Of a DNA stretch of 64,000 nt, positions 13,711-43,106 are shown one piece after another (position 1 is the first letter of the stretch; each line of letters opens with the position of its first letter). The notes beneath the pieces are model-generated. The model was not told the DNA's origin, made no database searches, and saw only the letters and a list, made by a program, of their open reading frames with translations. The stretch lies in the IMG/VR virus record IMGVR_UViG_3300021256_003716; one strand, 5' to 3'. Made by a program: the position numbers and the translations under genes. This DNA comes from an uncultured virus (IMG/VR IMGVR_UViG_3300021256_003716). Taxonomy: Duplodnaviria; Heunggongvirae; Uroviricota; Caudoviricetes.

Positions 13711-14465
13711 AAATAATTAGTTTTTTGTACTTAGTCAAAGTAGGTTACATATTATAAAAGTTGATTAGATTTAGCAACTAATTAAAAATAAATATTTTAA
13801 TTACCTTTACATTTTTTGTAAATGCGCTAATTTAATAATATAAGATTTTTGATGATGTTTACATCATTAAAAATAAATCCTTTAAGGTTTTAAGGAGTCT
13901 GGTGAGCTTCTTATAGAAAACTTCCCACCAAGATATTTTTATATCGTTACCCTTCGGGGTAGGTAAAATGCCTGTGTCGCTTTTTTCCTATGATTGCAAA
14001 TTAAGGATAGTGACGTAGATGTAGGTTTACTTAGATAACTATAATACATTAATTCTTGAGTATTGATTGTCCTTCCGAGGATGATTCTCGTCTGAGTAAA
14101 CGATTTTTGTTGTAATGTTTAAGAAACTTTAATGAAAGCAATCTTTCTTAAAATAATCCAACAAGTCGGTTACCAGAAACTTTTTTGTTTATCAGGGAGT
14201 CAAATCTTTGATAAGCCATCGGATAAACTAGATTGTGGATAGTCGCTTGGGTTCACTACCTTAGCCCTTGTGGAAGGAGACTAGCAGTAAACTTTTCCTG
14301 ATAAGTGGTTTCAGTTTTGGGTTTACAATTTTTAACTAATTAAAATATTAAGTTTTATACTTAATAAAAATTGATTACATATTATAAATGTAAATCAATA
14401 AAAGATACTAATTAAAGTATCAATTGAATGGTTTTTAAGACCAAATTTTTTATAGGAGACAGAGC

Positions 14466-14594
14466 ATGAATACTTCTAAGAAGATTATTAAATCAGTTAC
14501 TCTTAGTGTAAAACCCGGCTGTGGGATTGTGCTACCATGTCTTAAAGGAATTTGGCAAAAGGAAGAGAGCTTAGAAACGAATTTAATTATCTAA
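14466..14594 (+). CDS. Attenuator leader peptide A (42 aa)
   Basis: AGGAG RBS; MNTSKKIIKSVTLSVKPGCGIVLPCLKGIWQKEESLETNLII. Confidence 0.75.
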   Translation: MNTSKKIIKSVTLSVKPGCGIVLPCLKGIWQKEESLETNLII

Positions 14595-14621
14595 AATAAG
14601 ATGTAATTAAAAAAGTTTTCT

Positions 14622-14651
14622 AGGCTCGGTTGAAAAAACTGAGCCTTTTTT
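14622..14651 (+). terminator. Attenuator A terminator
   Basis: AGGCTCGGTT-GAAAA-AACTGAGCCT plus T tract. The 5' arm can alternatively pair with 14567-14577. Confidence 0.8.
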
Positions 14652-14716
14652 ATTGGTAAAAGCTGCTAGACTTCCTTCCAGTCTTAGAAGTCGTTCACAA
14701 TGTTTTTGAAAATTAT

Positions 14717-14790
14717 GCATCATTAGCTCAGCTGGCTAGAGTGTCTGCCCTCCAAGCAGAATGTCGTCGGTTCGAATCCGACATGGTGCT
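14717..14790 (+). tRNA. tRNA-Gly(TCC)
   Basis: GCATCAT/ATGGTGC; TCTGC-CCTCCAA-GCAGA. Confidence 0.85.
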
Positions 14791-14792
14791 CT

Positions 14793-14908
14793 AAAAGAAT
14801 GCTGTAGAAGTGGTATACTTAGATTATAGGTTAATCATTTGAATGCTAATCAAACTTAAGCTGGTTCGAGTCCAGCAGTATAAAGCTGCTTCATTTTTTG
14901 CTTCTTTT
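14793..14908 (+). ncRNA. Y-RNA-like repeat, copy 3
   Basis: Conserved stem enclosing a canonical-order D / anticodon (GCT loop) / T cloverleaf. Confidence 0.65.
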
Positions 14909-14999
14909 GATTTTTATGAAAGATTCGACCAAAATCTTTCAAGACCTGTCAAGCTATTAAAGTAGGTTTGGTCGCTGAAAAGATAGCTTGATATTTTAT

Positions 15000-15071
15000 G
15001 TCACAGTCGTATAACGGTTATTACGTGGCCTTGCCAAGGCTGAAATGTGGTTTCGACTACCATCTGTGGCT
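15000..15071 (+). tRNA. tRNA-Gly(GCC)
   Basis: GTCACAG/CTGTGGC; loop TTGCCAA. Confidence 0.85.
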
Positions 15072-15168
15072 TATAGAGGAAAAACCGTCTGTAACCTCTT
15101 AAAAAACTTGTAGTCAATGGTAGTGGTGGACCTTAATCGAAACTGTTTAGCAGTTAAACCAACTCCAA

Positions 15169-15251
15169 CGGTTCGTGGCGTAATTGGCAGCCGCGTCAGA
15201 CTTAGGATCTGATGCTCTCCGAGCGTGTGGGTTCGACTCCCACCGAGCCGA
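15169..15251 (+). tRNA. tRNA-Leu(TAG)
   Basis: TCAGA-CTTAGGA-TCTGA, long variable arm. Confidence 0.9.
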
Positions 15252-15621
15252 CTAAAGGCGACTAATTGACGTGGTTTAAAAACCTACTCAGGTGGTCTTA
15301 ATGAAGCTTAAGTGTACTCCAGCCTGGATTAAAAGAAGGTGGCTGAAAGCCGGGAATAAACTCGTGTGGTTTTAGAATTCTTCCACATAAGGTAAATGCC
15401 TTAAGAGCAACAGCTCCCGTAGCTTGAGTGTGGATATATTGATTTAACACTCCCTGATAGGATGCTATAACTGAGTCCTAGGATAAGTAAACAGCAGGTT
15501 GTAATCTGTTTGAAGTATAGCAAATTTTTTAAGAATGCCAAAATTTATTTTACTGGCCTTCTTTAGTCTTTTCTTGGTATGTGGTAGTAAAAGGCACTTA
15601 TTTTAATATAGGAGAATGGAT

Positions 15622-15747
15622 ATGAGAAACGTAACTGTTAAAACAATTAAGATTACTCAGATTAAATACAACAAACCAGTTGTAATTAAACCCGTATGCC
15701 CATGGTGTCCTATTAAGGTATGGCCAGATTTGGAAGATTCTAAGTGA
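15622..15747 (+). CDS. Attenuator leader peptide B (41 aa)
   Basis: AGGAG RBS; MRNVTVKTIKITQIKYNKPVVIKPVCPWCPIKVWPDLEDSK. Confidence 0.8.
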   Translation: MRNVTVKTIKITQIKYNKPVVIKPVCPWCPIKVWPDLEDSK

Positions 15748-15783
15748 AATTTTTAATGATGCAAAATTAGAAGTTTGATTTAG

Positions 15784-15812
15784 AGTCTTTCAGGAAACTG
15801 AAAGACTTTTTT
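15784..15812 (+). terminator. Attenuator B terminator
   Basis: AGTCTTTCAG-GAAA-CTGAAAGACT plus T tract. Antiterminator 15730-15745/15778-15793. Confidence 0.85.
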
Positions 15813-15819
15813 ATTTTTA

Positions 15820-15891
15820 CGGCGACTGGGTCAGTAGTTGATCACTCGGCTTGGGACCGAGACCAGGGCGGAGCGTAACCGTCGTCGCCGA
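15820..15891 (+). tRNA. tRNA-Pro(TGG), atypical T loop
   Basis: CGGCGAC/GTCGCCG; CTCGG-CTTGGGA-CCGAG; T loop AGCGTAA. Confidence 0.75.
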
Positions 15892-16046
15892 TATAAAAGA
15901 AATGCTGTAAGATAAGAGTTACTTAGCTGTTGGAGCCGTGTGTCGTGGGTTCGAATCCTACTCTGCCGATTTTCGCCGGCAGATAGCTCAGTCTGGTAGA
16001 GCAACGAATAAAAAACTTTTATTTAGTTTTTGCTTTCTTTTTATAT
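15891..16046 (+). ncRNA. Y-RNA (YrlA)-like repeat, copy 4, with a circularly permuted tRNA domain
   Basis: T arm, then a closed acceptor stem TCTGCCG/CGGCAGA, then a D arm, all inside the conserved stem. Confidence 0.8.
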
Positions 16047-16132
16047 AGGTGTGTGGGTGAGTGGTCGAAACCAACAGTCTCCAAAACTGTCGTGATAAAT
16101 TCTCAACGCCTGTTCGAATCGGGCCGCACCTG
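16047..16132 (+). tRNA. tRNA-Trp(CCA), long variable region
   Basis: AGGTGTG/CGCACCT; ACAGT-CTCCAAA-ACTGT. Confidence 0.85.
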
Positions 16133-16137
16133 AAGCT

Positions 16138-16228
16138 AAGTAGTTGGACAAATTGGTAAAGTCGGCATTGTCCAAAGATGCTGTGTATGCGTACGATACA
16201 CTTATAGGTTCGAATCCTATACTACTTG
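16138..16228 (+). tRNA. tRNA-Trp(CCA), long variable arm
   Basis: AAGTAGT/ACTACTT; GCATT-GTCCAAA-GATGC; GTGTAT/ATACAC arm. Confidence 0.75.
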
Positions 16229-16236
16229 TAATATTT

Positions 16237-16308
16237 CGGAATGTGGGTCAAAGGTTGATCGCTGGTTTTGGGAACCAGATTATGTTAGTTCGAGTCTAAT
16301 CATTCCGA
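16237..16308 (+). tRNA. tRNA-Pro(TGG)
   Basis: CGGAATG/CATTCCG; CTGGT-TTTGGGA-ACCAG. Confidence 0.85.
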
Positions 16309-16484
16309 CTATTCCAAAAAGCGCTGGGAGAACATCCAGAAAAGTTTGGGCTAACACAAACCAAGTAAGGATGCCTAAGCGGAATGGTAACTTTGCTGTG
16401 ATTCTATGGCGTAGTTAGAGATGCTGTAGGCTGGTTAAGGAATAAGGCAACATAATAAGAGCCATGTTGATGAGGAATTTTTAT

Positions 16485-16561
16485 GCTAGTGTGGAAACAA
16501 ATTGGTAAAGTTACCACTCTGATAAAGTGGGAATGTGGTAGTTCAAGTCTATCCACTAGCA
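16485..16561 (+). tRNA. tRNA-Ile(GAT)
   Basis: GCTAGTG/CACTAGC; CCACT-CTGATAA-AGTGG. Confidence 0.85.
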
Positions 16562-16646
16562 CGTGCGTTATGAGTGGAAGGCCTCGCATGATAATGTGCT
16601 ATCTAGGGATTTTTCGGTAAACCTTAAAAATAACCGACCATTTTAC

Positions 16647-16720
16647 TGGACATGTTCTCGACGGTTTTTGGGAGCTGGTCTGATAAACCAGTACACGTAG
16701 TTCAACTCTACGGTGTCCAA
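16647..16720 (+). tRNA. tRNA-Ile(GAT)
   Basis: TGGACAT/GTGTCCA; CTGGT-CTGATAA-ACCAG. Confidence 0.75.
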
Positions 16721-16802
16721 GAGGAGCACGATTGAATAGGGGGCTTCTGAAACAAAAACCGCTATTTAGGGATTTTATGGTAAACCTTAAAAAAACCTAT
16801 TT

Positions 16803-16874
16803 GCTCCTTGTCCTCGACGGGTTGAGGAATAGTTTTACAAACTATCACACATTGTTCGACTCAATGAGGGAGTA
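16803..16874 (+). tRNA. tRNA-Val(TAC)
   Basis: ATAGT-TTTACAA-ACTAT; T arm CATTG/CAATG. Confidence 0.75.
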
Positions 16875-16882
16875 TATTATTT

Positions 16883-16953
16883 GTTCTATTCGTATAATGG
16901 TAGTACCTTAGCTTGACGTGCTAATGGCGGAAGTTCGATTCTTTCATAGAACA
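16883..16953 (+). tRNA. tRNA-Val(GAC)
   Basis: GTTCTAT/ATAGAAC; TTAGC-TTGACGT-GCTAA. Confidence 0.85.
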
Positions 16954-17114
16954 GCCTAAGGTTTCATCAGGTATCCAAAGATAGGCGGAAACTTGGTAGG
17001 TAGAAATACCTCTGAAAATATTGGGAGTTAACGTTACCCAATCTATGAGTAAGTTAAGTGAGTTTTCAGGTTTAGCACATTTTTGTGTTAAACTAGAAAT
17101 CTCAAAAATATTTT

Positions 17115-17186
17115 GGTCGGTTTGCCAAGTGGTAAGGCGGGTGGCTGCAACCCATCTATGCAGGTGTTCGATTCATCTACCGATCT
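17115..17186 (+). tRNA. tRNA-Cys(GCA)
   Basis: GGTCGGT/ACCGATC; loop CTGCAAC; U73. Confidence 0.9.
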
Positions 17187-17254
17187 TAATTTATGGCAGT
17201 TTAGCCAAGCGGCTCTTGCAGCGGTCTATACTTATTATTTTTACTAATTATTAT

Positions 17255-17926
17255 ATGAGTTTTAGTGAATATAACAAGAAAAGACAAAAAGACTGGTTTT
17301 GTGATGAATGTAATAAAACATTTAAAACACGTGTTGAATATCGTCAGCATCGTAAGGAAGTTAAGCATAAATCTGCTCATTCTAGGCCTTCTATAAATTG
17401 GACCTGTGAATATTGTGGATGTGAAAGGTTTTCTCCAAAGGGGTCTCAAACACTTCATATGAAATATTGCTTAGCTAATCCAAACCATATTCAGTGTATA
17501 GGACATAAAGTATTAGAAGAAACTAAAAATAAAATTTCTAAAGGTATGGTTCTAGTACATAAAGAAGGTCGTGCTAATGAATGGCAAGGTAGACGCGAGC
17601 GTAGCTATGCGGAACAAAGCTGGTATAATATTTTTACAAAGGATTTTGGTGAAGGCTCTTTTGCTAATAATTATTTTGTAAAGAAATATTGGCTTGATTT
17701 CGCTTGGCCTGAGAAAAAATTATATTTTGAAGTTGATGGCCGAACACACTTTACAGAAGAGGGACTTCTTCATGATAAAGAACGTACTGAGTTTCTTATT
17801 AGTGAGGGATGGACACTAATCGGTAGGTGTAATTGGTCAGAATACCAAAAATTATCTAAAGAAGATAAAGAGTCTTTTGTTAGGGCTATTGAAAATAAAA
17901 TTTTGGCCGTGAATCCGAATGGTTAG
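17255..17926 (+). CDS. Homing-endonuclease-like protein (zinc finger, NUMOD3-like, DUF559/Vsr-like nuclease)
   Basis: CDEC..H..H, EETKNKIS, YWLDFAW..YFEVDGRTH. Inserted inside a tRNA array. Confidence 0.8.
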   Translation: MSFSEYNKKRQKDWFCDECNKTFKTRVEYRQHRKEVKHKSAHSRPSINWTCEYCGCERFSPKGSQTLHMKYCLANPNHIQCIGHKVLEETKNKISKGMVLVHKEGRANEWQGRRERSYAEQSWYNIFTKDFGEGSFANNYFVKKYWLDFAWPEKKLYFEVDGRTHFTEEGLLHDKERTEFLISEGWTLIGRCNWSEYQKLSKEDKESFVRAIENKILAVNPNG

Positions 17927-17977
17927 GTAGCAAGTCTGCAAAACTTGTTGTTGAGGGTTCGAATCCCTCCGCGGTCT
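17905..17977 (+). tRNA. tRNA-Cys(GCA)
   Basis: CAAGT-CTGCAAA-ACTTG; overlaps the endonuclease stop codon. Confidence 0.85.
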
Positions 17978-18034
17978 TTATAAAATGACGGTGGTGGGTT
18001 CGAATCCCACCCCCGCCTCTTAAAGGAGACTTTT

Positions 18035-18190
18035 ATGGATTGTGGCATGGTAATAATAAATGGGCCTATGGCTGAAAGAATTTATAATGCTATGCTAGAA
18101 TCATCTGAAAAATCTAAATCTAATAAGGAAAAGCGTGAAAAGCGTTTAAGAGAGTTTGAAGAACGTATGAAGAAGAAACAGAGGGCTTAA
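18035..18190 (+). CDS. Small hypothetical protein (51 aa)
   Basis: AAGGAG RBS; below the track cut-off. Confidence 0.55.
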   Translation: MDCGMVIINGPMAERIYNAMLESSEKSKSNKEKREKRLREFEERMKKKQRA

Positions 18191-18259
18191 CCTTCTATTC
18201 AGTCCATTGGAATTGAAGGTGCCCAGTTAAATGGAACAAGACATTTTCAATTTTTTAAT

Positions 18260-18331
18260 GGGCTGTTAGGAAAGCGGATAATCCACTGGTCTTTTAAACC
18301 AAGTAGCCGGGTTCAACCCCCGGACAGCTCA
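18260..18331 (+). tRNA. tRNA-Lys(TTT)
   Basis: GGGCTGT/ACAGCTC; loop CTTTTAA. Confidence 0.8.
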
Positions 18332-18339
18332 TCTTTTAA

Positions 18340-18428
18340 GGGCACGTTCCGATAGTAGGTTTAATCGACCAGACTTTTAATCTGGAGAGGCTTGTTCCTC
18401 ATCGTGGGTCCGAATCCCACCGTGCTCA
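18340..18428 (+). tRNA. tRNA-Lys(TTT), long variable arm
   Basis: CCAGA-CTTTTAA-TCTGG; GAGG/CCTC arm. Confidence 0.8.
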
Positions 18429-18435
18429 TTTTTAC

Positions 18436-18527
18436 GGGCGTGTTAGTATAGCCAGGTCGAATACAGCAGACTCTTAATCTGCCGGAGCATTGTTTCTCCC
18501 ACGTGAGTTCAAATCTCACCACGCTCA
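18436..18527 (+). tRNA. tRNA-Lys(CTT), long variable arm
   Basis: GCAGA-CTCTTAA-TCTGC; GGAG/CTCC arm. Confidence 0.85.
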
Positions 18528-18531
18528 TTTT

Positions 18532-18606
18532 TAGCCCATAGCTCAAGTAGTTAGAGCAGCGCCCATTTAAGGCGTCAGGTTCTTAGTGCAAGTCTAAGTG
18601 GGCTAA
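18532..18606 (+). tRNA. tRNA-Lys(TTT)-like
   Basis: TAGCCCA/TGGGCTA; loop CATTTAA with A33. Confidence 0.65.
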
Positions 18607-18653
18607 ATCTTTATAAATGTGAAACAATATACCAGTATATTGCATATTTATTA

Positions 18654-21423: not shown

Positions 21424-21426
21424 TGT

Positions 21427-32572: not shown

Positions 32573-32621
32573 AATGTAGCTTGTGTGGCTACTTAAGAAT
32601 TTTTAATAGGAGTCAAAGAAT

Positions 32622-32735: not shown

Positions 32736-32774
32736 TTTTTAGATTTATAAGAACAGTTAATAGATTTTGATTAA

Positions 32775-32809
32775 AGCCCTTTCAGGAAAGATTCTTGAAA
32801 GGGTTTTTT
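32775..32809 (+). terminator. Attenuator C terminator
   Basis: AGCCCTTTCAGGAA-AGA-TTCTTGAAAGGGTT plus T tract. Antiterminator strand at 32705-32723. Confidence 0.85.
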
Positions 32810-32815
32810 ATTTTT

Positions 32816-32889
32816 GCTGAGGTAGCAAAGTAGGTCAACTGCAGCGGACTGAAAATCCGCCGATGTGAGTTCGATTCTCACCCTCAGCA
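32816..32889 (+). tRNA. tRNA-Phe(GAA)
   Basis: GCGGA-CTGAAAA-TCCGC. Confidence 0.9.
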
Positions 32890-33009
32890 TAGCCTATATA
32901 CGAATGTGAAACACCGAGTAGGATATAGGTACAGATTGATGATAAATCGCGGTACAAGAACCATAGGAGCCGCTTAAAAAATGTCCCGAGGTAGGAGTGT
33001 TTCAATTAA

Positions 33010-33091
33010 GGGTTCGTGGCGGAACTGGTATACGCATCCGGCTTAAGACCGGACGCCGTAAGGATTGAGAGTTCGATTCTCTCCGGGCCCA
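33010..33091 (+). tRNA. tRNA-Leu(TAA)
   Basis: TCCGG-CTTAAGA-CCGGA. Confidence 0.9.
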
Positions 33092-33239
33092 AGAGGAAGA
33101 TAATGATGTTTGGTTCGACTCCAAATTTAAGTTGGTCAAGTCAGAGCTCTTTCATGATAAAGCTTATTTTAAGTTGAAGCTTTCAAAACTCTAAAGTCGT
33201 GTACAAGGCTGAGTTACTTTAGTAGATTTAAAAATTTAT

Positions 33240-33312
33240 CCAGACTTAGCGCAATTGGCAGCGCCGCTCGCTGAAGACGAGATGGTTCTAGGTTCGAGTC
33301 CTAGAGTCTGGG
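33240..33312 (+). tRNA. tRNA-Phe(GAA)
   Basis: CCAGACT/AGTCTGG; loop CTGAAGA. Confidence 0.85.
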
Positions 33313-33313
33313 C

Positions 33314-33388
33314 TAAAGAAATGCTGTAGTATAAGAGATACTTAGACTTAAAATCCAAAATACTCTTATTCAATTTTTGCTTTCTTTA
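33314..33388 (+). ncRNA. Y-RNA-like repeat, copy 5 (minimal)
   Basis: Conserved stem with an anticodon-loop-like insert GA-CTTAAAA-TC. Confidence 0.6.
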
Positions 33389-33393
33389 TTTAT

Positions 33394-33468
33394 GGTGACA
33401 TTAGCTCAGCTGGTAGTAGCGGAAGATTGTGGATCTTCAGGTCCTGGGTTCAAACCCCAGATGTTACC
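33394..33468 (+). tRNA. tRNA-His(GTG)
   Basis: G-1:C73; GAAGA-TTGTGGA-TCTTC. Confidence 0.9.
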
Positions 33469-33472
33469 CGTC

Positions 33473-33619
33473 CAAAAATATGCTGTAGAAGAAGACTTAC
33501 TTAGGTAATGATATCTTTTGAAACAGGAAAATCTAATTGGTTCAAATCCAATAAGGGTAAGTGGTTACTGATACCCTTAAAGTGACAAAATAAAGTTTTC
33601 TTCATTTTTGCTATTTTTG
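33473..33619 (+). ncRNA. Y-RNA-like repeat, copy 6
   Basis: Conserved stem; T arm followed by a closed 7-bp AAGGGTA/TACCCTT stem. Confidence 0.65.
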
Positions 33620-33624
33620 TTTTT

Positions 33625-33709
33625 CGGGATATAGCCGAATTGGTATAGGCGACAGGTTGAGGTCCTGTGGGCTGAAAAGCTCGTGGAGGTTCGAGTCCTC
33701 TTATCCCGA
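33625..33709 (+). tRNA. tRNA-Leu(GAG)
   Basis: ACAGG-TTGAGGT-CCTGT. Confidence 0.9.
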
Positions 33710-33710
33710 C

Positions 33711-33783
33711 TGTACAGGTAGAACAATGGCTAGTTCAGAGGTCTGTGGAACCTCCTATGCGGGTTCGATTCCCGTCCTGCACA
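33711..33783 (+). tRNA. tRNA-His(GTG)
   Basis: GAGGT-CTGTGGA-ACCTC. Confidence 0.8.
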
Positions 33784-33906
33784 TTAAAAGGAGCTTTACG
33801 AGTTTACGTGTGCGGAGCCAGAACCAGAAAAGCGGGCGACAGCATTGTGCTAACCTGCTGAATGACTAAGCCAGACTAGAAGGGCTCTGGGAAGCTTCTT
33901 ATTTAT

Positions 33907-33990
33907 GCGAGTGTGGCGAAATTGGTAAACGCAGCATCCTCAAAAGATGCCGTCCGAAAGGACTTGTCGGTTCGAGTCCGACCATTCGCA
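33907..33990 (+). tRNA. tRNA-Leu(CAA)
   Basis: GCATC-CTCAAAA-GATGC. Confidence 0.9.
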
Positions 33991-33998
33991 CTATTTAC

Positions 33999-34072
33999 TG
34001 CTCCATAGCTTAATCAGGTAAAGCAACGCGTTCTGACCGCGGAGAGTCTGGGTTCGAATCCTAGTGGAACAA
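33999..34072 (+). tRNA. tRNA-Gln(CTG)
   Basis: Loop TTCTGAC, canonical D and T arms. Confidence 0.8.
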
Positions 34073-34122
34073 TATAAGTTTTTTACTTATAAAAACTTAG
34101 ATACATATAATATATAATAATT

Positions 34123-34197
34123 TGCAGAGTTAGCTTAGTTGGTTAGAGCATCCGGCTCATATCCGGACGGTCACTGGTTCGAATCCAGTACTCTGCA
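34123..34197 (+). tRNA. tRNA-Met(CAT) (or lysidine-type Ile2)
   Basis: TCCGG-CTCATAT-CCGGA. Confidence 0.85.
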
Positions 34198-34437
34198 TAA
34201 AACTTAAGCTGAATAAGTAAGTTGTGATGAGTTAGTGACCGTGATTACATAGAAGGATGAGCTTTTTCAGAAAAGAAAACGAGTATCAGCGTTTCCGTTT
34301 GGAGCTTATGTACAGAGCTCTATATAAAGTATGATTTAGCAATAGTGTTCCTCGCGGAATCTTAAAAAGGGTAATGTGCAAGCAAAAGAAAATTCAGAAC
34401 GAAGTGGCTTTTAAAGAAGCTGAGTAGGCATGTTTAT

Positions 34438-34509
34438 TCCTCCGTGGTGTAATGGGTAGCACCAGGCACTCTGGATGCTTTAGTCTGGGTTCGAATCCTG
34501 GCGGAGGAA
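34438..34509 (+). tRNA. tRNA-Gln(CTG)
   Basis: TCCTCCG/CGGAGGA; loop CTCTGGA. Confidence 0.9.
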
Positions 34510-34688
34510 CTTTTTCGGGGAAGTTCCGAAGTGCAGAACGTTGTCTTACTTTATGGAAGGTTTGCGACCTGAAAAGATGATATGAAAGCAAGTATCACAT
34601 TCCAATAAAGGAAAAAACCGCGTGACAACAATACCAGTGACCATGCAGAATGATGTTGAGCTGGTAAACTTTTTAGAAAGGTATATGA

Positions 34689-34955
34689 ATGAGTAAAAAA
34701 CTAAAATTTACGGGTGGTGTAACACCCAGAGGTTTTGAAACAATTCATTTTGATGATCTTTATGGTCAGAAGTGTAGGATTCAAAAATCTTCATTAGCAA
34801 CAGAGGAAGCTTGGTGGATTGGAATAGAAAATTCTGGTCCTAATATTAAAGGTCCTAAAGGTGATTATAATGAAGAAGTAAATGATTTAATGCATCTTTC
34901 TAAAAAACAAATTAGAAATTTAATTGATAAGCTAGAAGAAATTATAGCTGATTAA
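34689..34955 (+). CDS. Hypothetical phage protein
   Basis: TPRGF..F.DLYG..C.IQKSSLATE..WIG..MHLS. Confidence 0.7.
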   Translation: MSKKLKFTGGVTPRGFETIHFDDLYGQKCRIQKSSLATEEAWWIGIENSGPNIKGPKGDYNEEVNDLMHLSKKQIRNLIDKLEEIIAD

Positions 34956-34964
34956 GTTATATAA

Positions 34965-35052
34965 GGAGGTGTGGCCCAGAGGCTACGGCAGGGGATTGCT
35001 AATCCCCCGGTTGGGGTAACCCGCCACGCGAGTTCGAATCTCGCCGCCTCCG
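34965..35052 (+). tRNA. tRNA-Ser(GCT)
   Basis: GGGGA-TTGCTAA-TCCCC, long variable arm, G73. Confidence 0.9.
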
Positions 35053-35367
35053 TACTTTTGCCAGTTTCTTAAAACTGGTGGGAATCCCAGGTATTAGATA
35101 AAATCTATACTAAGTCGTCTACCTCCAGCGACAATAAATAATTGGGGGTAGCATTTTTAGGGGTGAATTTATGTCTAGCTGTGATAATTGTAACCATAAC
35201 TGGCTTTGTGCAAGTGATGCTTGGACAGGACATATTTGTAATATATATGGCTATGAAATAGAAAAAATACCTTTAGAAAAGAGAAAGGCTGTATTTAAGA
35301 ATTGTAAATATGCAAAGCTAAAAGTAAATAAAGGTGATAAAAAATAGCCTTTTGGAGGTTCTCAGAT

Positions 35368-35622
35368 ATGGGAAAGAAAACTAAATGGGTTCTGTGTTTA
35401 ACACGCACAGATGTCGTAGTTGGAACAATTGGAGCGGTTATTAGCTCATTTTTTTATGTATTGGGTCTTTTATTTTATTTCTGTAACAGTACTGTAATAA
35501 GTTTTATTTCATTTATGTCAGCTTTGTCTGTATTAGTTTTACTTTTGGTATATTTTATAATTGGAGAAATAAATCTTAGAATTGCGGACAAGAAAAATAA
35601 ACCCAAAGAAAAGATTGTGTAG
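35368..35622 (+). CDS. Hypothetical membrane protein
   Basis: GGAGG RBS; two hydrophobic segments. Confidence 0.65.
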   Translation: MGKKTKWVLCLTRTDVVVGTIGAVISSFFYVLGLLFYFCNSTVISFISFMSALSVLVLLLVYFIIGEINLRIADKKNKPKEKIV

Positions 35623-36375
35623 TTAATATAAAATTACGAATTGGTTTTAATAATATTGTCTAGTTTGGTATTTTAGGAAGGTATCGATATTCCCGTAAGT
35701 TATCGTTTAAATGGGTGAAATGCTGTGGAGCTATAGCCTTCCTTTACTTGTGACCGTGCCAAGTATAAAAGTACGTACGGCGGCACTAAGCAGTCTGCCA
35801 TAGAAGTGACTGTGAGACCTTCGGCAGTTAAGTCGGAAAAGTCCATAGTAATATGGTTAAGCTGCCAATTTTATTGGAGAAATATTTTGGTAGACTTAAC
35901 AACGCTTCCAAATCAGATTGGATGTTATACAAGACGAAGCCCAAAATCTAATGCTTGGATAAATGGTAATATGATTGTTCTAATTACGGATCATAGTGTT
36001 AGCTTTGGAACAGCAATCCCAGTCGGAGCTTGTTTTAGAAAAGCGGAAGTTTCTTCAAATGAAGAAGCTATCGCTGAAGTTAAAAAAGGCTGGAAAAAGA
36101 AAAAGTAATTTTATACTTGCTTTGAATTAAAAACATATAATATATGTAAGTCTTTTCGAAGATAACAGACTAAGAACCAGGTTAAAAACCTGGCATCTCG
36201 CTGGTCGGGGTGGTGAGTGCTACGCTTAGAGGTCAACTGCGAAAATAGAAAAGCCGCTTTAAGTAGAAGCGCCCTAATATAGGGGTCTTTAATGGAATAC
36301 CAGAAATCCTACTTCGTGCTTATATAGGAAGATGATTAAGCTTCGTTAAGGTTGACAGCCATAAAACTTCCATTT

Positions 36376-36476
36376 GGGAAATCAAGCAACATCGGCGATT
36401 GTTATCTATCCGTTAAGGATAGAGGAGTAAGTCCCCGCAAGGGCGTCTATGTTGGTTCGACTCCAATATTTCCCTC
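36376..36476 (+). ncRNA. tRNA-like RNA (7-bp anticodon stem, GTTAA loop)
   Basis: GGGAAAT/ATTTCCC; TCTATCC/GGATAGA; T arm. Confidence 0.5.
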
Positions 36477-36623
36477 TGGGTGCAGCAGCGTCTTGGATAG
36501 CACGTTATTAGGACTAACCTAATTGCACAAAGGAGTTAGCCAGGGGACATAGTAATATGCCTCGTTCTAAGACTAGTGTACTGGGCGGGTTTGGGCTGAT
36601 GGAAGGTACACATTTTAATACGT

Positions 36624-36698
36624 AGCGGGCGAGTGAAACGGAATTATCATGCCGGGCTCATATCCCGGTGATACTAGGTTCGACTCCTAGGTCCGCCA
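36624..36698 (+). tRNA. Initiator-type tRNA-fMet(CAT)
   Basis: 1:72 mismatch and GGG/CCC in the anticodon stem. Confidence 0.8.
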
Positions 36699-36759
36699 AA
36701 TCAGAGAGTTGCAAATTTCTGAGAGTAGATTTAGTATTCTAGATGCTAAGTTGAAAGTT

Positions 36760-36833
36760 TATTCCGTATGCCAATGGTAGAGCAGCGGCCCGTTTGTGCC
36801 GTGGATATGTGAGGTCAAGACTCATCGGAATAA
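36760..36833 (+). ncRNA. tRNA-like RNA with an 8-nt loop
   Basis: TATTCCG/CGGAATA; GCGGC-CCGTTTGT-GCCGT. Confidence 0.45.
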
Positions 36834-37148
36834 TTACTAGTGGGTATTGTGGAACCTTAAATCCACCGGGACGAAAGTCTGAAAGTACCTTAAGTTAGAA
36901 ACAATGTAGTACTTAAGTTGTTTTTAGCGAGCCTTAAGTGGCAGCCGGAAGGTGGTACATGGCCTAAAGTAACTTGGATAGGATCATATCTGAAAATGAT
37001 ATGACAGGTTCTCCAAGGTAGGAAGGGCGCGCGGGTAACCAGTGTCATCAGGGAGGTTACAGGGAGCGGGACGCTGACTAAACGATGAATATGAGAGACC
37101 GCCCAGGCAGTAGGCCTAACCGGCTAAAGTCAGCATTTTTTATTTTAC

Positions 37149-37292
37149 GGGGAGTCTGGTAACTAATCGGTAAGTTACGGCTAGATGTAAACTAGCTGCT
37201 CGTTTCATGCATAATGATGGCCTAAAAGCATGTTGAAGTTTAGTTACGCGTATTAAACAAGAGCTTTGCGTGTTCGACTCCGTGGCTCCCCA
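37149..37292 (+). ncRNA. tRNA-like RNA with a GTA loop and very long variable arm
   Basis: GGGGAGT/GCTCCCC; 6-bp D stem; GCTAG-ATGTAAA-CTAGC. Confidence 0.55.
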
Positions 37293-37389
37293 CTATTAAC
37301 GTTTTAGTTATTATCGTAAAATAATTTGGCGGTGGGGAAGTGCTTTGCACCCCTCTGTTCGGCTTAAAGAACTGAAACTTAAGCAATTG

Positions 37390-37975
37390 AACAAGAAAAA
37401 GTTCTAAAAATCCGTCGGAAATTTTAAGGTGGCGTGAATACCTTAGATCAAGTCTATCGCGTTAAAATTATTAGTAAAAAGTAGAGGTGCGAATCCTCGG
37501 TCGCTCTGTAAAGGGCCACCAAGTCTAAGTCATAACTTAATGTAAAAGACTTTCTAATGTTAGTTACCAGTGGAAAGCTGGCTGCGAGCGAGTTTGATGA
37601 TTTTTGTGGCAACGAGTTTATGGATAAATAAGCGAAAGCTGAATAAAATAGTTCATAGTACCAGCGATGCCAGATATAGCTCAGATAACATACCATATAA
37701 ATCGACTTCGTGTGCGTGTTGGTAATAAAGTTAAGAGCAGCACACTCTTAATGTGCGTGTCGGTGCAAGTTGTTAAGCATCTAACTGGAATCGGTAAAAG
37801 CTCAGAGTCTGTAGCACTAGAAACAATGAGCATGAATGCCAAATAACGGTTCGAAACTAATCCACAATTTTTAGTTTCATTGATAGTTTTACCAATATGC
37901 TACTAGGAAGCTTAAAAGTGCCGATGTGGAGTCAGGCGTTGATATTTAAGCAAAAGAAAAACTACAGGAAAGGTT
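37390..37975 (+). ncRNA. ROOL-like large RNA
   Basis: About 580 nt with GAGGTGCGAATCCTC, TATAGCTCAGATAAC and AAAGCTCAGA..GTAGCAC segments recalled from ROOL. tRNA-island context. Boundaries approximate. Confidence 0.55.
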
Positions 37976-38596
37976 AAATTTATATAGGGACGATAAAGTC
38001 CCTTATTTTGGAATAAGTCGTAACGAGTATTTCTTGTGCAAATAAGACCTCCATTGTGAAAAAAGACTGCTGTATTATATGAGTCATTTGGCCGTAATAC
38101 GGAGTTGGTTAGCCGAGCTGAAATTGATGCATCGAGTAAGCTCAGAGAAAGGATAAGACAAAGTGCATAGTCGTCTAAATGGGAGGGCGCACTCTGAAAG
38201 AGGAGTGAATATGGGTTCGAATCCCATTTATGCTTTGAAGCGCCAGAAAATAACGGACCAAGTGTTAAGTATAGGTCTGGTAGACCGTATAAAGTGCCCG
38301 CTTGGATAGCGGCCGTGACGAGAAGGCTGGGACCTATAACGCCTCATTAGCTTGTTAAACTAAAAGACGCTATACGAGTTGTATATTAGGGTGATTGCAA
38401 CACGAGAGGGTGAAGCTTAAGCCACAAAAATCCCTAATTTTTAAAAGCTGTGTGAGACGAGGAAGTTCCTCTCAATAGCCACAGTAGCTAGCTCGGCTAG
38501 TGGAGCCCCAATTTTTGGGGCGTTATTGTTAATATAAAATTATTAGAATTTTTGAGAAAATACTAATTAAATATAAATTTTAATAAGGAGACGAAA

Positions 38597-38689
38597 ATGG
38601 TAATACGTAGCAGACAAATTCAACAAATAATACGTCAAAATTGTACATATACTAGTTCGTCTTTAATTTTTAAAGTGGTTAAGAAGTAA
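38597..38689 (+). CDS. Attenuator leader peptide D (30 aa)
   Basis: AAGGAG RBS; MVIRSRQIQQIIRQNCTYTSSSLIFKVVKK, with ATA x3 and CAA x4. Confidence 0.75.
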   Translation: MVIRSRQIQQIIRQNCTYTSSSLIFKVVKK

Positions 38690-38721
38690 TCAATTAAAAA
38701 TAATAAAAATATTTTATCATA

Positions 38722-38752
38722 GGCGAACTAGAAATAGTTCGCCATTTTTTTT
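38722..38752 (+). terminator. Attenuator D terminator
   Basis: GGCGAACTA-GAAA-TAGTTCGCC-A-T8. Antiterminator strand at 38652-38662. Confidence 0.8.
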
Positions 38753-38765
38753 GGAAAATTTAATT

Positions 38766-39056
38766 ATGAAATATGATAGATATGCAAAACCTACAAAACC
38801 TTTTATGGTAATACATTATGGAACATCAACTTATAAGGTATTCAAAAGTCTAGAAAGGGCAACAGATTTTGCTATAAAATATTCCAAAAAAGTGCGAGAC
38901 TTTGTTTATTTAACAGAGCCAGTTTTGAAAAGTGATGGTTATAGGTGTGTAATTAAGGAAACCTATAAAGACGGAATATTTATTGATGCAAGTAAAGGTG
39001 CAATTTTATTACATTATATCTTTTATTATTTTGCATCAAAAAAGGGAAAGGAATAA
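38766..39056 (+). CDS. Hypothetical protein
   Basis: ORF track. Confidence 0.6.
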   Translation: MKYDRYAKPTKPFMVIHYGTSTYKVFKSLERATDFAIKYSKKVRDFVYLTEPVLKSDGYRCVIKETYKDGIFIDASKGAILLHYIFYYFASKKGKE

Positions 39057-39059
39057 TAT

Positions 39060-40235
39060 ATGTTTGATATAAATGGAAAATATGGCTCAGCAAAAGTTTA
39101 TGCGGAAACAATTGATGATGCTTGTATTTCACAGATTTATGGATTTTTAAATAATCCTATTACAGAAAATGTAAAAGTAGCAGTAATGCCAGATGCTAAT
39201 GTTGGCAAAGGCAGTACAGTTGGTTTTACACAAGAAATTAAAGATAAAGTAAATCCAAGTATGGTCAGTGTTGATATTGGATGTGGCATGTTGGTATGCA
39301 AAGTATCTAAAGAATATCATATGGATTTACCAAAGTTAGATAAAGTAATTCACCAGCAAATTCCTAGTGGCTTAAAGCACTGTGATAAGGTAAGCCTTTT
39401 TGCTAAGAATATCGACTTAAAAGGTCTTATTGCGGATGTAAATTACAATAAGGAAATTTTAGGTCTTTCATCACTCGGAGGTGGTAACCACTTCATTGAG
39501 GTAGATAAAGATCAAGAAGGTGATTACTATATTGTAATCCATTCTGGATCAAGACACTTAGGTGTTGCAGTTTGTGAGTATTGGGAAAAAGTAGCTAATA
39601 ATTTTCATAAGAAGCTAGCGGTAAAGAAATCAGAGTTGATTAATGCTAAAAATGAAAAAGCGTTAGCAGAATTGCCACCAGTAGTAACTTCTTATGGATT
39701 ATCTTATTTAATGGGAGAAGACCTAAAAGGTTATCTACATGATATGAAGATTACACAGGAGTTTGCAAGGCTTAACCGTGAAGCAATGCTTGATGTAATT
39801 CTTACTGAAATGGGAATTAAGAAGCGATATATTTTGGATAAGTTTTGTACTATCCATAATTATATCGACTTAAATAAAATGGTTTTAAGAAAGGGCGCAA
39901 TTTCTCTTGAAAAAGGTGAAAGAGCAATAATTCCAATTTCTATGGCATATGGCTCTTTAATTGTAGAAGGCAAAGGAAACCCTGATTGGAACTTTTCTGG
40001 ACCACATGGGGCAGGAAGACTTTTATCAAGGTCAGACGCTAAAAATTCTATTTCTATGGAAGACTATAAGAAATCTATGGAAGGAATTTATACAACTTGC
40101 GTAAAAGCTTCAACAGTAGATGAGTCACCAATGGCTTATAAAAATCCTGATGAGATTATTAGAGCTATTGATGGTACAGCAACAATTATAAAGACAATAC
40201 ACCCTATTTATAACTTTAAGGCCGGTAGTGATTAA
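39060..40235 (+). CDS. rtcB: RtcB RNA ligase (2',3'-cyclic phosphate / 5'-OH)
   Basis: MPD, DIGCG, GGGNHF, HSGSR, HNY, RKGA, HGAGR, DESPMAYK. Confidence 0.95.
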   Translation: MFDINGKYGSAKVYAETIDDACISQIYGFLNNPITENVKVAVMPDANVGKGSTVGFTQEIKDKVNPSMVSVDIGCGMLVCKVSKEYHMDLPKLDKVIHQQIPSGLKHCDKVSLFAKNIDLKGLIADVNYNKEILGLSSLGGGNHFIEVDKDQEGDYYIVIHSGSRHLGVAVCEYWEKVANNFHKKLAVKKSELINAKNEKALAELPPVVTSYGLSYLMGEDLKGYLHDMKITQEFARLNREAMLDVILTEMGIKKRYILDKFCTIHNYIDLNKMVLRKGAISLEKGERAIIPISMAYGSLIVEGKGNPDWNFSGPHGAGRLLSRSDAKNSISMEDYKKSMEGIYTTCVKASTVDESPMAYKNPDEIIRAIDGTATIIKTIHPIYNFKAGSD

Positions 40236-40527
40236 AATGGAAAGACCTAGAATTAAGTTTAAGAACTTTTGGTTATGGTTTAGCGATCAGGTATTACGTA
40301 AGAAAGCTTTTTATAACTTTTTTATAAGTAAAAATGCCTGGGGTGCTTTTAGTATCAACTCACATATTAGGGGTGATAATCAGCAACCAAAAGTTACATA
40401 TAATACTAAAAAATCTGCGCTTAAAGCGGCAGAAAGTATGGGTAAAAAGTATAATAAACATTTTTCAGTGTATAAATGTTTATTCTGTGATGGATATCAT
40501 ATTGGAAAAAATATGAATAATAAATAA
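40228..40527 (+). CDS. Hypothetical zinc-binding protein
   Basis: YKCLFCDGYHIG. Confidence 0.65.
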   Translation: MIKMERPRIKFKNFWLWFSDQVLRKKAFYNFFISKNAWGAFSINSHIRGDNQQPKVTYNTKKSALKAAESMGKKYNKHFSVYKCLFCDGYHIGKNMNNK

Positions 40528-40583
40528 CGTTTATAAATATAAACAAAATATAGCATAACGTTTGTTTTTACAAACGTTATCAC

Positions 40584-40657
40584 ACTCCAGTAGCTCAGCA
40601 GTCAGTAGCAGCATCCTTATAAGTTGTTGGTCGGTGGTGCAATTCCATCCTGGAGTA
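40584..40657 (+). tRNA. tRNA-Ile(TAT)
   Basis: ACTCCAG/CTGGAGT; loop CTTATAA. Confidence 0.75.
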
Positions 40658-40747
40658 TCTGAGGTAAACGGTAATTGGTACCCGCCCTGGCTTTGAACCA
40701 GTAGCGACCCAAAAGTTGCTCTGCAGGTCCGAATCCTGCCCTCAGAA
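40658..40747 (+). tRNA. tRNA-Gln(TTG), long variable arm
   Basis: TCTGAGG/CCTCAGA; loop CTTTGAA; AGCGAC/GTTGCT arm. Confidence 0.8.
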
Positions 40748-40759
40748 TATAAAACTTTT

Positions 40760-40788
40760 GAACCATAGCATAAGCTATGGTTCTTTTT
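40760..40788 (+). terminator. Intrinsic terminator ending the rtcB-tRNA unit
   Basis: GAACCATAGC-ATAA-GCTATGGTTC plus T tract. Confidence 0.8.
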
Positions 40789-41766: not shown

Positions 41767-41831
41767 TAGTGGTTCGAATTCTATTTCTAGAATAATCTTA
41801 AAAATTTTTTTAAGTTTACAAATATATAAAT

Positions 41832-42434
41832 ATGATTGAACTTAGAGAAAATAAAGAAAAAGATGACTTTGCTAAAGGTCGCGTTTTAATTTGGGATAAG
41901 CTACCTCGCATTCATAAACTTTGGAAAAATGAATCGGAACGCCTTAAATTAGAATGTGCAATAATGCTGGATAATCAAACTTCATTTTTAGCTAGATTAT
42001 CTGATGATCAGCTTGATGATTTATTAGAAAAGCATCATTTTGAATCAGCTGAAGAATGTTTAGAAAATGTAATTCAGCTTTATAAAGATTTTTCTAAAAA
42101 AGAAAATCTTGATGTAGTTGCATTACAAACTGGAAGGGATGCTATACCATATAGAAATGCTGTTAGAGATGCTGATTATATGGTTTCATGTCGTGAAACG
42201 TCCTATGAAGCTATAGATGTAGTACTTAAAGCTGCCAAGCATGCAGTTTTAGGTATATTGGTTCCATTTATGACCTCTAGGCAAAATAAACCTTGTATGT
42301 TTGCAGACTGGTTTTTGAGCGATATAAAAAAAGATGCGGATGCATCAGCGTTAATTGAGCCATTACCAGAAGGTGCCCAAGCAGCTATTTATGAGAGTGA
42401 TGAACCTTACAAAAGTGAAGAAAGCTTTAAGTAA
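41832..42434 (+). CDS. Hypothetical protein
   Basis: ORF track. Confidence 0.7.
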   Translation: MIELRENKEKDDFAKGRVLIWDKLPRIHKLWKNESERLKLECAIMLDNQTSFLARLSDDQLDDLLEKHHFESAEECLENVIQLYKDFSKKENLDVVALQTGRDAIPYRNAVRDADYMVSCRETSYEAIDVVLKAAKHAVLGILVPFMTSRQNKPCMFADWFLSDIKKDADASALIEPLPEGAQAAIYESDEPYKSEESFK

Positions 42435-42470
42435 CTAATTATTTTAATATTAAATATGGAGAATGTTGAT

Positions 42471-42563
42471 ATGACAATGGTAAGAACAAACAGAACAATT
42501 ACTCGTCGTAGACGTATCACACGTCGTAGATATGTCATGTCTTTATGCGAACTCCAGATTTAA
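42471..42563 (+). CDS. Attenuator leader peptide E (30 aa)
   Basis: GGAG RBS; MTMVRTNRTITRRRRITRRRYVMSLCELQI. Confidence 0.8.
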   Translation: MTMVRTNRTITRRRRITRRRYVMSLCELQI

Positions 42564-42587
42564 ATTTTTGATAATTTGAATTTTAGC

Positions 42588-42614
42588 AGGCAGTTCGCAA
42601 GAACTGCCTTTTTT
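42588..42614 (+). terminator. Attenuator E terminator
   Basis: AGGCAGTTC-GCAA-GAACTGCCT plus T tract. Antiterminator strand at 42546-42553. Confidence 0.85.
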
Positions 42615-42619
42615 ATTTT

Positions 42620-42692
42620 GTGGGTATAGCCTAGCGAATGAGGCACTGGTTTGCGGAGCCAGTCAAGGTAGGTTTGACTCCTATTACCCACA
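42620..42692 (+). tRNA. tRNA-Arg(GCG)
   Basis: CTGGT-TTGCGGA-GCCAG. Confidence 0.8.
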
Positions 42693-42699
42693 CTTTTTT

Positions 42700-42779
42700 C
42701 GGGGTGGTGAGCGGCTGGACGCTCGGTAGTCTTCTAAACTACAGCGAAAGCATTGCAGGTTCGACTCCTGTCACCCTGA
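42700..42779 (+). tRNA. tRNA-Arg(TCT)
   Basis: GTAGT-CTTCTAA-ACTAC. Confidence 0.8.
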
Positions 42780-42785
42780 TATTTT

Positions 42786-42859
42786 GCAAGTATAGAGCAA
42801 CTGGATAACTCACGAAGCTACGAACTTCGGAATTGCGGGTTCGAATCCTGCTACTTGCA
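42786..42859 (+). tRNA. tRNA-Arg(ACG)
   Basis: CGAAG-CTACGAA-CTTCG. Confidence 0.9.
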
Positions 42860-42864
42860 TTTTT

Positions 42865-42944
42865 CGGAATGTAGCCGAGTCAGTTTCCTAAACTGGTAAT
42901 CGTAACTGGAGCTGCAAATGCGTGTTCGATCCACGTCGTTCCGA
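42865..42944 (+). tRNA. D-armless tRNA-Arg(CCT)-like
   Basis: CGGAATG/CGTTCCG; TCAGT-TTCCTAA-ACTGG; only 8 nt where the D arm should be. Confidence 0.6.
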
Positions 42945-42951
42945 TATAATT

Positions 42952-43022
42952 GCTGACTTGTCTTAGTGGTTGAGGCCAAGATTCGTAATCTTGAGAGATT
43001 GGTTCGATTCCAATAGTCAGCT
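42952..43022 (+). tRNA. tRNA-Thr(CGT)
   Basis: CAAGA-TTCGTAA-TCTTG. Confidence 0.85.
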
Positions 43023-43033
43023 CTTAAATATTT

Positions 43034-43106
43034 GTGTCTATGGTCTAGTGGATTGGGCGCTGGTCTTCGAAACCAGTTGAGGCAAGTTCGATTCTTGCTA
43101 GACACA
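43034..43106 (+). tRNA. tRNA-Arg(TCG)
   Basis: CTGGT-CTTCGAA-ACCAG. Confidence 0.9.

Follow-up and report, generated by a model that had tools for sequence, protein, structure and literature searches.

The question raised by this locus is how a genome with many tRNA genes controls when they are transcribed. The DNA analysed here (the window) is a 64,000-nucleotide (nt) stretch of IMG/VR record IMGVR_UViG_3300021256_003716, from an uncultured virus. It is AT-rich (28-42% GC) and contains 41 tRNA genes, which ARAGORN places on the plus strand in every case, and 34 of these lie behind five short open reading frames (ORFs) that resemble regulatory leader peptides (L1 to L5). Our answer, to which we give a probability of roughly 75%, is that each unit is a ribosome-mediated (leader-peptide) transcription attenuator ahead of a tRNA operon, with the L4 operon also encoding RtcB, a tRNA ligase. 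The window's leaders, terminators, arrays, pairing segments and promoter-like blocks described below are all on the plus strand.

An earlier look at the sequence (the original prediction) had placed five ORFs of 30-42 amino acids (aa), each with a Shine-Dalgarno (SD) sequence, at 14466, 15622, 32622, 38597 and 42471. These coordinates are exact, and AGGAG, AAGGAG or GGAG lies 6-9 nt before the ATG in all five. L1 (14466-14594) encodes the 42-aa peptide MNTSKKIIKSVTLSVKPGCGIVLPCLKGIWQKEESLETNLII, with AGGAG 7 nt before its ATG and its best-matching block at codons 5-30. L2 (15622-15747) has AGGAG at the same distance and encodes 41 aa, MRNVTVKTIKITQIKYNKPVVIKPVCPWCPIKVWPDLEDSK, with its best-matching block at codons 6-35. 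The 37-aa peptide of L3 (32622-32735) is MTRNVSLLQFSFLSQMHFSLHQFFMLLCEGANRNSIK, and its regulatory block would be codons 6-27. L4 and L5 each encode 30 aa: L4 (38597-38689; MVIRSRQIQQIIRQNCTYTSSSLIFKVVKK; AAGGAG 6 nt before ATG) has a block at codons 3-14 with three ATA and four CAA codons, and L5 (42471-42563; MTMVRTNRTITRRRRITRRRYVMSLCELQI; GGAG 9 nt before ATG) has one at codons 5-20 with nine Arg codons.

A hairpin of 9-16 bp with a T-run follows each leader, 25-38 nt past the stop codon. These predicted intrinsic terminators lie at 14622-14652 for L1 (10-bp stem), 15782-15818 for L2 (12 bp), 32773-32815 for L3 (16 bp), 38722-38752 for L4 (9 bp) and 42588-42619 for L5 (9 bp). For L1, L2, L3 and L5, the distance from terminator stem to first tRNA is 8-71 nt, and the terminators of L2, L3 and L5 end just 8-11 nt before that tRNA. 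The claim that tRNA genes come after the terminator holds as stated for these four units, and L4 deviates from it in that three protein genes, including RtcB, come first.

The gated genes differ between units. According to ARAGORN and the Rfam tRNA model, array 1 (14717-15252) contains Gly-TCC, Ser-GCT, Gly-GCC and Leu-TAG, and array 2 (15820-18607) contains Pro, Trp x2, Pro, Ile-GAT, Val-GAC, Cys x2 and Lys x4. By the same two methods, array 3 (32815-35052) reads Phe, Leu-TAA, Phe, His, Leu-GAG, His, Leu-CAA, Gln-CTG, Met, Gln-CTG and Ser-GCT, and array 5 (42620-43107) reads Arg-GCG, Arg-TCT, Arg-ACG, Thr-CGT and Arg-TCG. The L4-gated operon (38766-40781) consists of a 96-aa ORF, RtcB (39060-40235; Pfam match with E = 1.2e-56), a 99-aa ORF, tRNA-Ile(TAT) and tRNA-Gln(TTG) (40584-40747 in ARAGORN), and a closing terminator at 40762-40781. 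Neither the 96-aa nor the 99-aa ORF matches a family.

These units can be found without reference to their composition. Our structure-only detector looks for an SD-led ATG ORF of 12-70 codons with a hairpin and T-run at most 110 nt beyond its end, and it ignores codon content. It reports 10 ORF-terminator pairs in the window, five of which are L1-L5. Two more (26892 and 37924) are weak candidates, and the other three are rejected: in pair 3111 the terminator falls inside tRNA-Asn, pair 5575 is an internal ATG of the nicotinate phosphoribosyltransferase (NAPRTase) gene, and pair 42139 lies within the gene at 41832-42434.

Do the leaders match the tRNAs they precede? We scored codon matches under strict wobble rules, with codon usage taken from 30 long ORFs (9,683 codons). 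L3 is the clearest case: 23/36 of its codons are decodable by its own array, including 22/22 consecutive codons at positions 6-27. L2 matches its array at 21/40 codons and 27/40 residues (best window 20/30 codons), and L5 at 9/29 codons (best window 9/16), with Arg or Thr making up 14/29 of its residues. L4 matches tRNA-Ile(TAT) and tRNA-Gln(TTG) at 7/29 codons (ATA x3, CAA x4), with 6/8 at codons 7-14.

Binomial P-values are uncalibrated for such comparisons (an unrelated out-of-frame ORF reaches 6.9e-9), so we rely on ranks and permutations. When the five leaders are permuted exactly over the five arrays, the true pairing ranks 1 of 120. When 650 small ORFs are scored against 9 tRNA sets, L3, L4 and L5, each paired with its own set, take the first three places; L2 comes 10th, and L1 falls outside the top 30. 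A terminator was looked for in the interval between array 1 and L2, and none is present there, which makes a nested reading of L1 plausible: L1 probably governs arrays 1 and 2 jointly, with L2 as an inner gate. Against these two arrays combined, L1 matches at 23/41 codons. A nested role for L4 over arrays 4 and 5 also scores well (10/12 codons), but it is rejected because the terminator at 40762-40781 closes the L4 operon.

Related genomes provide a wider sample, which had been proposed as a check on whether leaders and arrays co-vary. The window has no close relative among GenBank phages: blastn of 14300-16400 matches 197 records, with only tRNA-sized matches (at most 4% of the query). The proteins of ORFs 41832-42434 and 30482-31552 have no relatives in IMG/VR. 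An RtcB search of IMG/VR returned 157 related stretches, from which 80 loci were kept, and the three closest relatives are used here: G001 (RtcB 77% identity, 219,523 bp, 40 tRNA matches), G002 (61% identity, 385,934 bp, 44 tRNA matches) and G003 (53-56% identity, 415,750 bp with direct terminal repeats, 55 tRNA matches).

The structure-only detector finds the leader module in all three, with compositions that differ and each match their own array. For example, the G001 leader MKKTFVTLNNTSPLYQPTSNWLNSSMLTPNGGSW precedes Thr, Leu, Leu, Ser, Asn, Trp, Leu, Pro, Thr, [RtcB], Gln, Met, Gln, Asn and Tyr, and 27/33 of its residues match. In G002, the leader MFTMNYDYNNNFSYENVTYDYGTEETTLYKRES (24/32 residues) precedes Asn, Tyr, Asp, Asp, Met, Thr, Glu, Glu, Asn, Gly and Met, and the leader MVENGIIGRSIICASSIASAKAVAPRIVPCSSKWVIAGKKEKDFK (39/44 residues) precedes Pro, Pro, Ser, Ala, Ala, Gly, Ile, Val, Cys, Lys x3, Trp and Arg. 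G003 has MKSLSLQCQLLSNSLLSWCLLSNTPVGTK (19/28 residues) before Trp, Leu x3, Gln, Cys, Ser and Leu x2, and a Tyr/Ser/Met-rich leader before Tyr, Tyr, Met, Met, Ser and Ser. RtcB thus sits inside a leader-gated array in G001 and inside a leader-gated operon (that of L4) in the window. L4 and the G001 leader at L001:8083 also have a common upstream motif, TACTAATTAAATATA, which suggests that they occupy orthologous positions with unrelated leader compositions.

L3 has a homologous leader in G002, and the reading frame is preserved between the two. Their alignment is 81% identical, with two compensatory double changes in the terminator stem and a 21-nt part of the codon block that is identical. 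We also inspected more distant RtcB phages, from the 48-49% GC group L014-L020, by eye and non-systematically, and saw no obvious unit upstream of L014 and L016, the only two covered.

A second permutation test used 16 non-redundant structure-defined units from the window and the three relatives, each with a tRNA no more than 250 nt from its terminator. Dropped from this set were L006, L009 and L010 (all nearly the same as L003), a unit with its 'terminator' inside a tRNA, window unit 37924 (its sole downstream tRNA has a four-letter anticodon), one G001 duplicate, the shorter of two ORFs on one terminator, and units with no tRNA within 250 nt, hence L4. Weak units were retained, e.g. window 26892 (1/24 codons). 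The 16 units include homologues (L3 and its counterpart in G002, for instance), which makes the number of independent cases lower than 16.

At the codon level, the summed own-array fraction over these units is 7.78, compared with a permutation mean of 3.22 (standard deviation 0.56, maximum 5.89), and 0/200,000 permutations reach it. Counting amino acids instead of codons gives a sum of 9.06, where permutations average 4.39 and 0/200,000 come as high. The leader's own array is the best-matching column for 10/16 leaders at the codon level. For 20/20 amino acids, mean leader frequency is higher when the isotype is in the array (pooled 0.109, n=83, versus 0.029, n=237). The leader/array association put forward in the original prediction is real and far above chance expectation, both within the window and across the 16 units.

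Attenuation also requires a leader segment that can pair with the 5' arm of the terminator. We compared the best duplex between leader region and 5' arm with 500 dinucleotide shuffles in 12 units. Such segments are predicted at 15729-15744 in L2 (ending at the stop codon; -16.3 kcal/mol; 2/500 shuffles as good), 32698-32715 in L3 (-18.5 kcal/mol; 3/500), 38651-38663 in L4 (11-bp duplex; -16.5 kcal/mol; 0/500) and 42545-42556 in L5 (-14.6 kcal/mol; 1/500). In the relatives' units, between 1 and 176 of 500 shuffles are as good as the real pairing. Summed over the 12 units, duplex energy is -171.7 kcal/mol against a shuffle mean of -105.8 (standard deviation 6.6), reached by 0/500 shuffles. The pairing segment starts beyond 55% of the ORF in 12/12 units, i.e. 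behind the matching codon block and 5' of the stop.

What was computed is the anatomy of the sequence, its statistics and the way leaders and arrays co-vary among relatives; from these we infer leader translation, stalling, the switch and its physiological trigger. Transcription would begin upstream and the short leader ORF would be translated, with the codon block in mid-ORF encoding the amino acids of the downstream tRNAs. If that block were decoded slowly, the ribosome would stall within it and leave the next segment of the ORF free to bind the terminator's 5' arm, forming an antiterminator that would let RNA polymerase continue into the tRNA genes. If decoding were fast, the ribosome would cover the segment up to the stop codon, the terminator hairpin would form and transcription would end. 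Since the readthrough product would be the very tRNAs that speed decoding of the block, the circuit would be one of negative feedback, giving supply-and-demand control to each isotype-sorted tRNA block.

Folding the alternative structures had been suggested as a check. Each nascent RNA was folded as far as the loop of the terminator, with 30 nt masked to represent a ribosome. When the ribosome is placed a third of the way into the block or less, or at its middle, the leader segment holds the 5' arm in 5/5 window units. With the ribosome at the stop codon, the antiterminator pairing is lost in L2, L4 and L5 only.

Several results weigh against this reading or narrow it, and the failure at the stop codon is one: over 15 nt separate the segment from the stop in L1 and L3, so a ribosome on the stop leaves the pairing intact. 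Without any ribosome, the antiterminator forms in 4/5 folds, so an untranslated leader would read through, unlike trp, and no trp-style 1:2 protector hairpin is evident in the folds of the five window units. The proposed trp/his/ilv-type architecture is supported in its SD-led ORF, matching block, antiterminator segment and terminator; the lack of an evident protector sets the units apart from trp but does not preclude attenuation. L1 is also the weakest of the five in pairing (14566-14575; -12.4 kcal/mol), with 78/500 shuffles as good, so the claim that the 3' part of every leader can pair with the 5' arm of its terminator is well supported for L2-L5 and weakly for L1. Against its own four tRNAs alone, L1 matches at 6/41 codons, which is likewise weak. 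The kinetics of attenuation would be strained if the host were one of those Firmicutes in which transcription runs uncoupled from translation.

Coverage and fine-scale matching are imperfect too. Seven of the 41 tRNAs (1063, 3164, 26245, 27061, 27332, 36623 and 38163) have no recognisable leader; for example, nothing in 25300-27800 is convincing as a leader of the Ile-TAT, Arg-TCT or Glu-CTC genes, and the small ORF at 26892 is the one with the 1/24 match. The G002 homologue of L3 has two Met codons though its array has no tRNA-Met, and it has no Cys codon though its array has tRNA-Cys. Co-variation in related phages holds in that differing leaders fit their own arrays, and is imperfect in this homologue for Met and Cys. 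When the peptide is fixed and synonymous codons are resampled from window usage (20,000 trials), L1, L2, L4 and L5 are not above expectation, and the total (60/20,000) is driven by L3. In the L2 block, GTA makes up 3/4 of the Val codons, yet strict wobble rules do not let Val-GAC decode it, and 0/5 Thr codons of L5 are ACG, although the array tRNA is Thr-CGT.

L3 alone exceeds expectation in the synonymous test, with 4/20,000 trials reaching the observed match. Its Gln codons are only CAG (array Gln-CTG), its Ser codons only AGT/AGC (Ser-GCT) and its Leu codons only TTA/TTG/CTC (Leu-TAA, CAA and GAG). In the other leaders it is chiefly the amino acid (isotype) that matches. 'Codon-matched', the label first given to these leaders, is apt for L3 and too strong elsewhere.

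Other explanations must be weighed against attenuation by tRNA supply. The same device might instead report amino-acid starvation or general translation stress through uncharged tRNA, with tRNA output a by-product of a stress switch. Sensing at the ribosomal A site, as in trp and his attenuation, cannot separate a missing tRNA from an uncharged one, and these leaders are multivalent, with 5-10 amino acids each, both of which suit a stress sensor. However, extra tRNA does not relieve amino-acid starvation, and leader composition that tracks array isotypes for 20/20 amino acids is the signature of a loop closed via the tRNAs, so we consider this explanation unlikely.

It is very unlikely that the short ORFs are incidental, or micro-proteins with some other role, while the terminators insulate or end upstream units and the tRNAs have their own promoters. 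Terminators are indeed common at gene ends in the window (22 strict intrinsic ones on the plus strand), and out-of-frame small ORFs can reach binomial P-values of about 7e-9 through composition alone. The permutation results given above (1 of 120 in the window; 0/200,000) and the 12-unit complementarity that no shuffle equals speak against such coincidence, as does the recurrence of the module in relatives with different compositions; moreover, the 8-11 nt between terminator and first tRNA in L2, L3 and L5 leave no space for a separate promoter. Antitermination by RNA alone or by a protein (T-box-like tRNA binding or a phage antiterminator protein), with the ORF uninvolved, would draw on the terminator/antiterminator alternatives that exist here, and T-box leaders do sense tRNA directly. 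Yet a single specifier cannot read 5-10 isotypes, all five leaders have an SD and ATG, the frame is kept between homologues, and only tRNA reaches the Rfam gathering score in the window: there are 37 such matches, every one RF00005, and none to T-box or leader families (Trp, His, Leu, Thr, PheA etc.) anywhere in the window. We regard this last explanation as extremely improbable.

If the units are attenuators, they could be triggered by host defences that cleave tRNA or just by the balance between tRNA supply and its use. The original prediction had specific host tRNAs cleaved or depleted, with anticodon nucleases such as PrrC in mind. RtcB within a leader-gated operon fits a tRNA-damage theme, which is no proof of it. 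One could go further and see the five leaders as a tRNA-damage-responsive counter-defence regulon that senses lost host tRNA isotypes and induces replacements, plus RtcB via L4. Here isotype loss may come from anticodon nucleases, other tRNA-targeting immunity or the phage's own host shut-off. We hold this extension only tentatively and consider it doubtful as it stands.

What would start transcription is suggested by a block common to L1 and L3. It lies at 14350-14392 upstream of L1, with TTATACTTA at 14355 and ATAAATGTA at 14384 (approximately 20 nt apart), and at 32537-32578 upstream of L3, with TTATACTTA at 32541 and ATAAATGTA at 32570. These two motifs co-occur only 5' of L1 and L3, and we infer that the block is a promoter. 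The motif upstream of L4 and its G001 counterpart is a different one.

Some RNA data are available as contigs from four RNA libraries, which cannot establish RNA ends or strand and may include DNA. Contigs from three runs span the L3 leader and end at 32815/32816, the boundary between T-tract and tRNA-Phe. They have variants at 32621, 32745 and 32773-32774, none within the L3 ORF. The two tRNA-Phe genes of array 3 are only 74% alike, so a within-genome repeat does not explain the break. These contig ends are only a weak hint bearing on termination, and stretches that no contig covers are uninformative.

Separately, by far the highest RNA-library contig depth (up to approximately 1,845 in one run) occurs at 36150-38520. 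This region, roughly 2.4 kb in length, lacks long ORFs and is the most GC-rich in the window. Contigs of two runs join 38235 back to 37976 with CC or CCA between, which suggests an RNA of approximately 260 nt that ends in the tRNA-like element 38163-38236, has CCA added and is joined head-to-tail. ARAGORN reports this element as tRNA-??? with a four-letter anticodon. The candidate RNA (37976-38236) has no Rfam match at E <= 1 and its fold is not significant (z = -1.46); at the same threshold, Rfam yields tRNA-like hits in 35000-38800 and a single one to a leader family, L20_leader, whose 22.3 bits fall short of the 58.7 required. RNA contigs also skip 64-137 nt at 34274-34340, 36890-37028 (in three runs) and 37347-37412, and these skips could be strain deletions or excised segments.

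The window sequence is present in gut and bovine-gut metagenome runs, one of which contains every sequence word sampled from it and could be where this DNA came from. Most tested ORFs have no family, and none of those tested against Pfam and PHROGs is a phage hallmark gene. The named ORFs are NAPRTase, EF-Ts, RtcB, an AAA ATPase, acetyl-CoA carboxylase carboxyltransferase and an acyltransferase. Among them are cellular-type genes: NAPRTase at 4339-5646, an EF-Ts homologue with an L7/L12-like N-terminus at 29674-30465, and the acyltransferase and carboxyltransferase pair at 51366-53978. We call the element a presumed phage from its IMG/VR relatives, which have RtcB and the leader module in common with it.

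The tRNA genes have peculiarities of their own. Class II-like long variable arms occur on two tRNAs with a Trp anticodon (88 and 93 nt), two with a Lys anticodon (89 and 92 nt) and one with that of Gln-TTG (90 nt), at 16046-16229, 18340-18527 and 40658-40747, which is unusual for those isotypes. Between two tRNA-Cys genes of array 2 lies a DUF559/C2H2 zinc-finger ORF (17255-17926) that resembles the homing-endonuclease genes scattered in the T5 tRNA region. The spacer from array 1 to L2 (15253-15600, about 350 nt) has neither a tRNA nor a convincing ORF.

The original prediction knew of no earlier description of such control for phage tRNA arrays, and this agrees with the literature covered: in open-access papers and bioRxiv, we found no account of leader-peptide attenuation of tRNA genes. 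The terms 'leader', 'attenuat', 'terminator' and 'promoter' are absent from the searched text of PMC10264068, and the available passages of PMC3082878 and PMC4810235 have no bearing on the subject. The role of phage tRNAs is debated, with codon compensation and escape from tRNA-cleaving defences as the alternatives discussed in parts of PMC10264068 and PMC11555353. If our reading is true, the purpose of phage tRNAs becomes testable, since each leader would state the shortages that the phage expects; on the counter-defence reading, the phage would pay for tRNA synthesis only when and where it is attacked. It would also be the first regulatory explanation for isotype-sorted tRNA blocks in large phages, it would extend the classic logic of attenuation from amino-acid supply to tRNA supply, and the leaders would be compact, natural, programmable sensors of decoding speed.

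Two possible precedents do not hold up. Phage T5 has 12 small annotated coding sequences in its tRNA region, none with a terminator between stop codon and tRNA (the tRNAs start within approximately 25 nt), so the leader module is not universal. The idea that tRNA-Phe genes may have a Phe leader finds no example upstream of E. coli K-12 pheV, the only such gene covered, where there is neither a Phe-rich ORF nor a terminator.

The nearest known systems are compared here by their general architecture. Multivalent leader-peptide attenuators are known from enterobacterial amino-acid operons (ilvGMEDA and thr; trp, his, leu and pheA also have leader-peptide attenuators). Like ilvGMEDA and thr, the units described here have an SD-led short ORF with regulatory codons for several amino acids, an antiterminator opposed to an intrinsic terminator, and ribosome position as the putative signal. 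They differ in that the regulated genes are tRNA genes and RtcB rather than biosynthetic enzymes, that up to approximately 10 amino acids are represented per leader, that there is no evident 1:2 protector hairpin and no Rfam leader match, and that five copies occur in one phage-like genome.

T-box riboswitches have terminator/antiterminator control keyed to tRNA state in common with these units. However, a T-box binds one uncharged tRNA directly and without translation, whereas here there is no T-box match in Rfam, and an SD-led ORF addresses many isotypes per leader. In E. coli, the pheM leader controls pheS-pheT (phenylalanyl-tRNA synthetase). It resembles the proposed units in being leader-peptide attenuation of a component of the translation apparatus that responds to cognate charged tRNA, but it controls a synthetase rather than a tRNA, is monovalent (Phe only) and is chromosomal. 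On the attenuator reading, which the computations support well, what appears to be new here is that this kind of control would act on tRNA operons and on a tRNA ligase, with several copies in a genome, each specific to its own isotypes.

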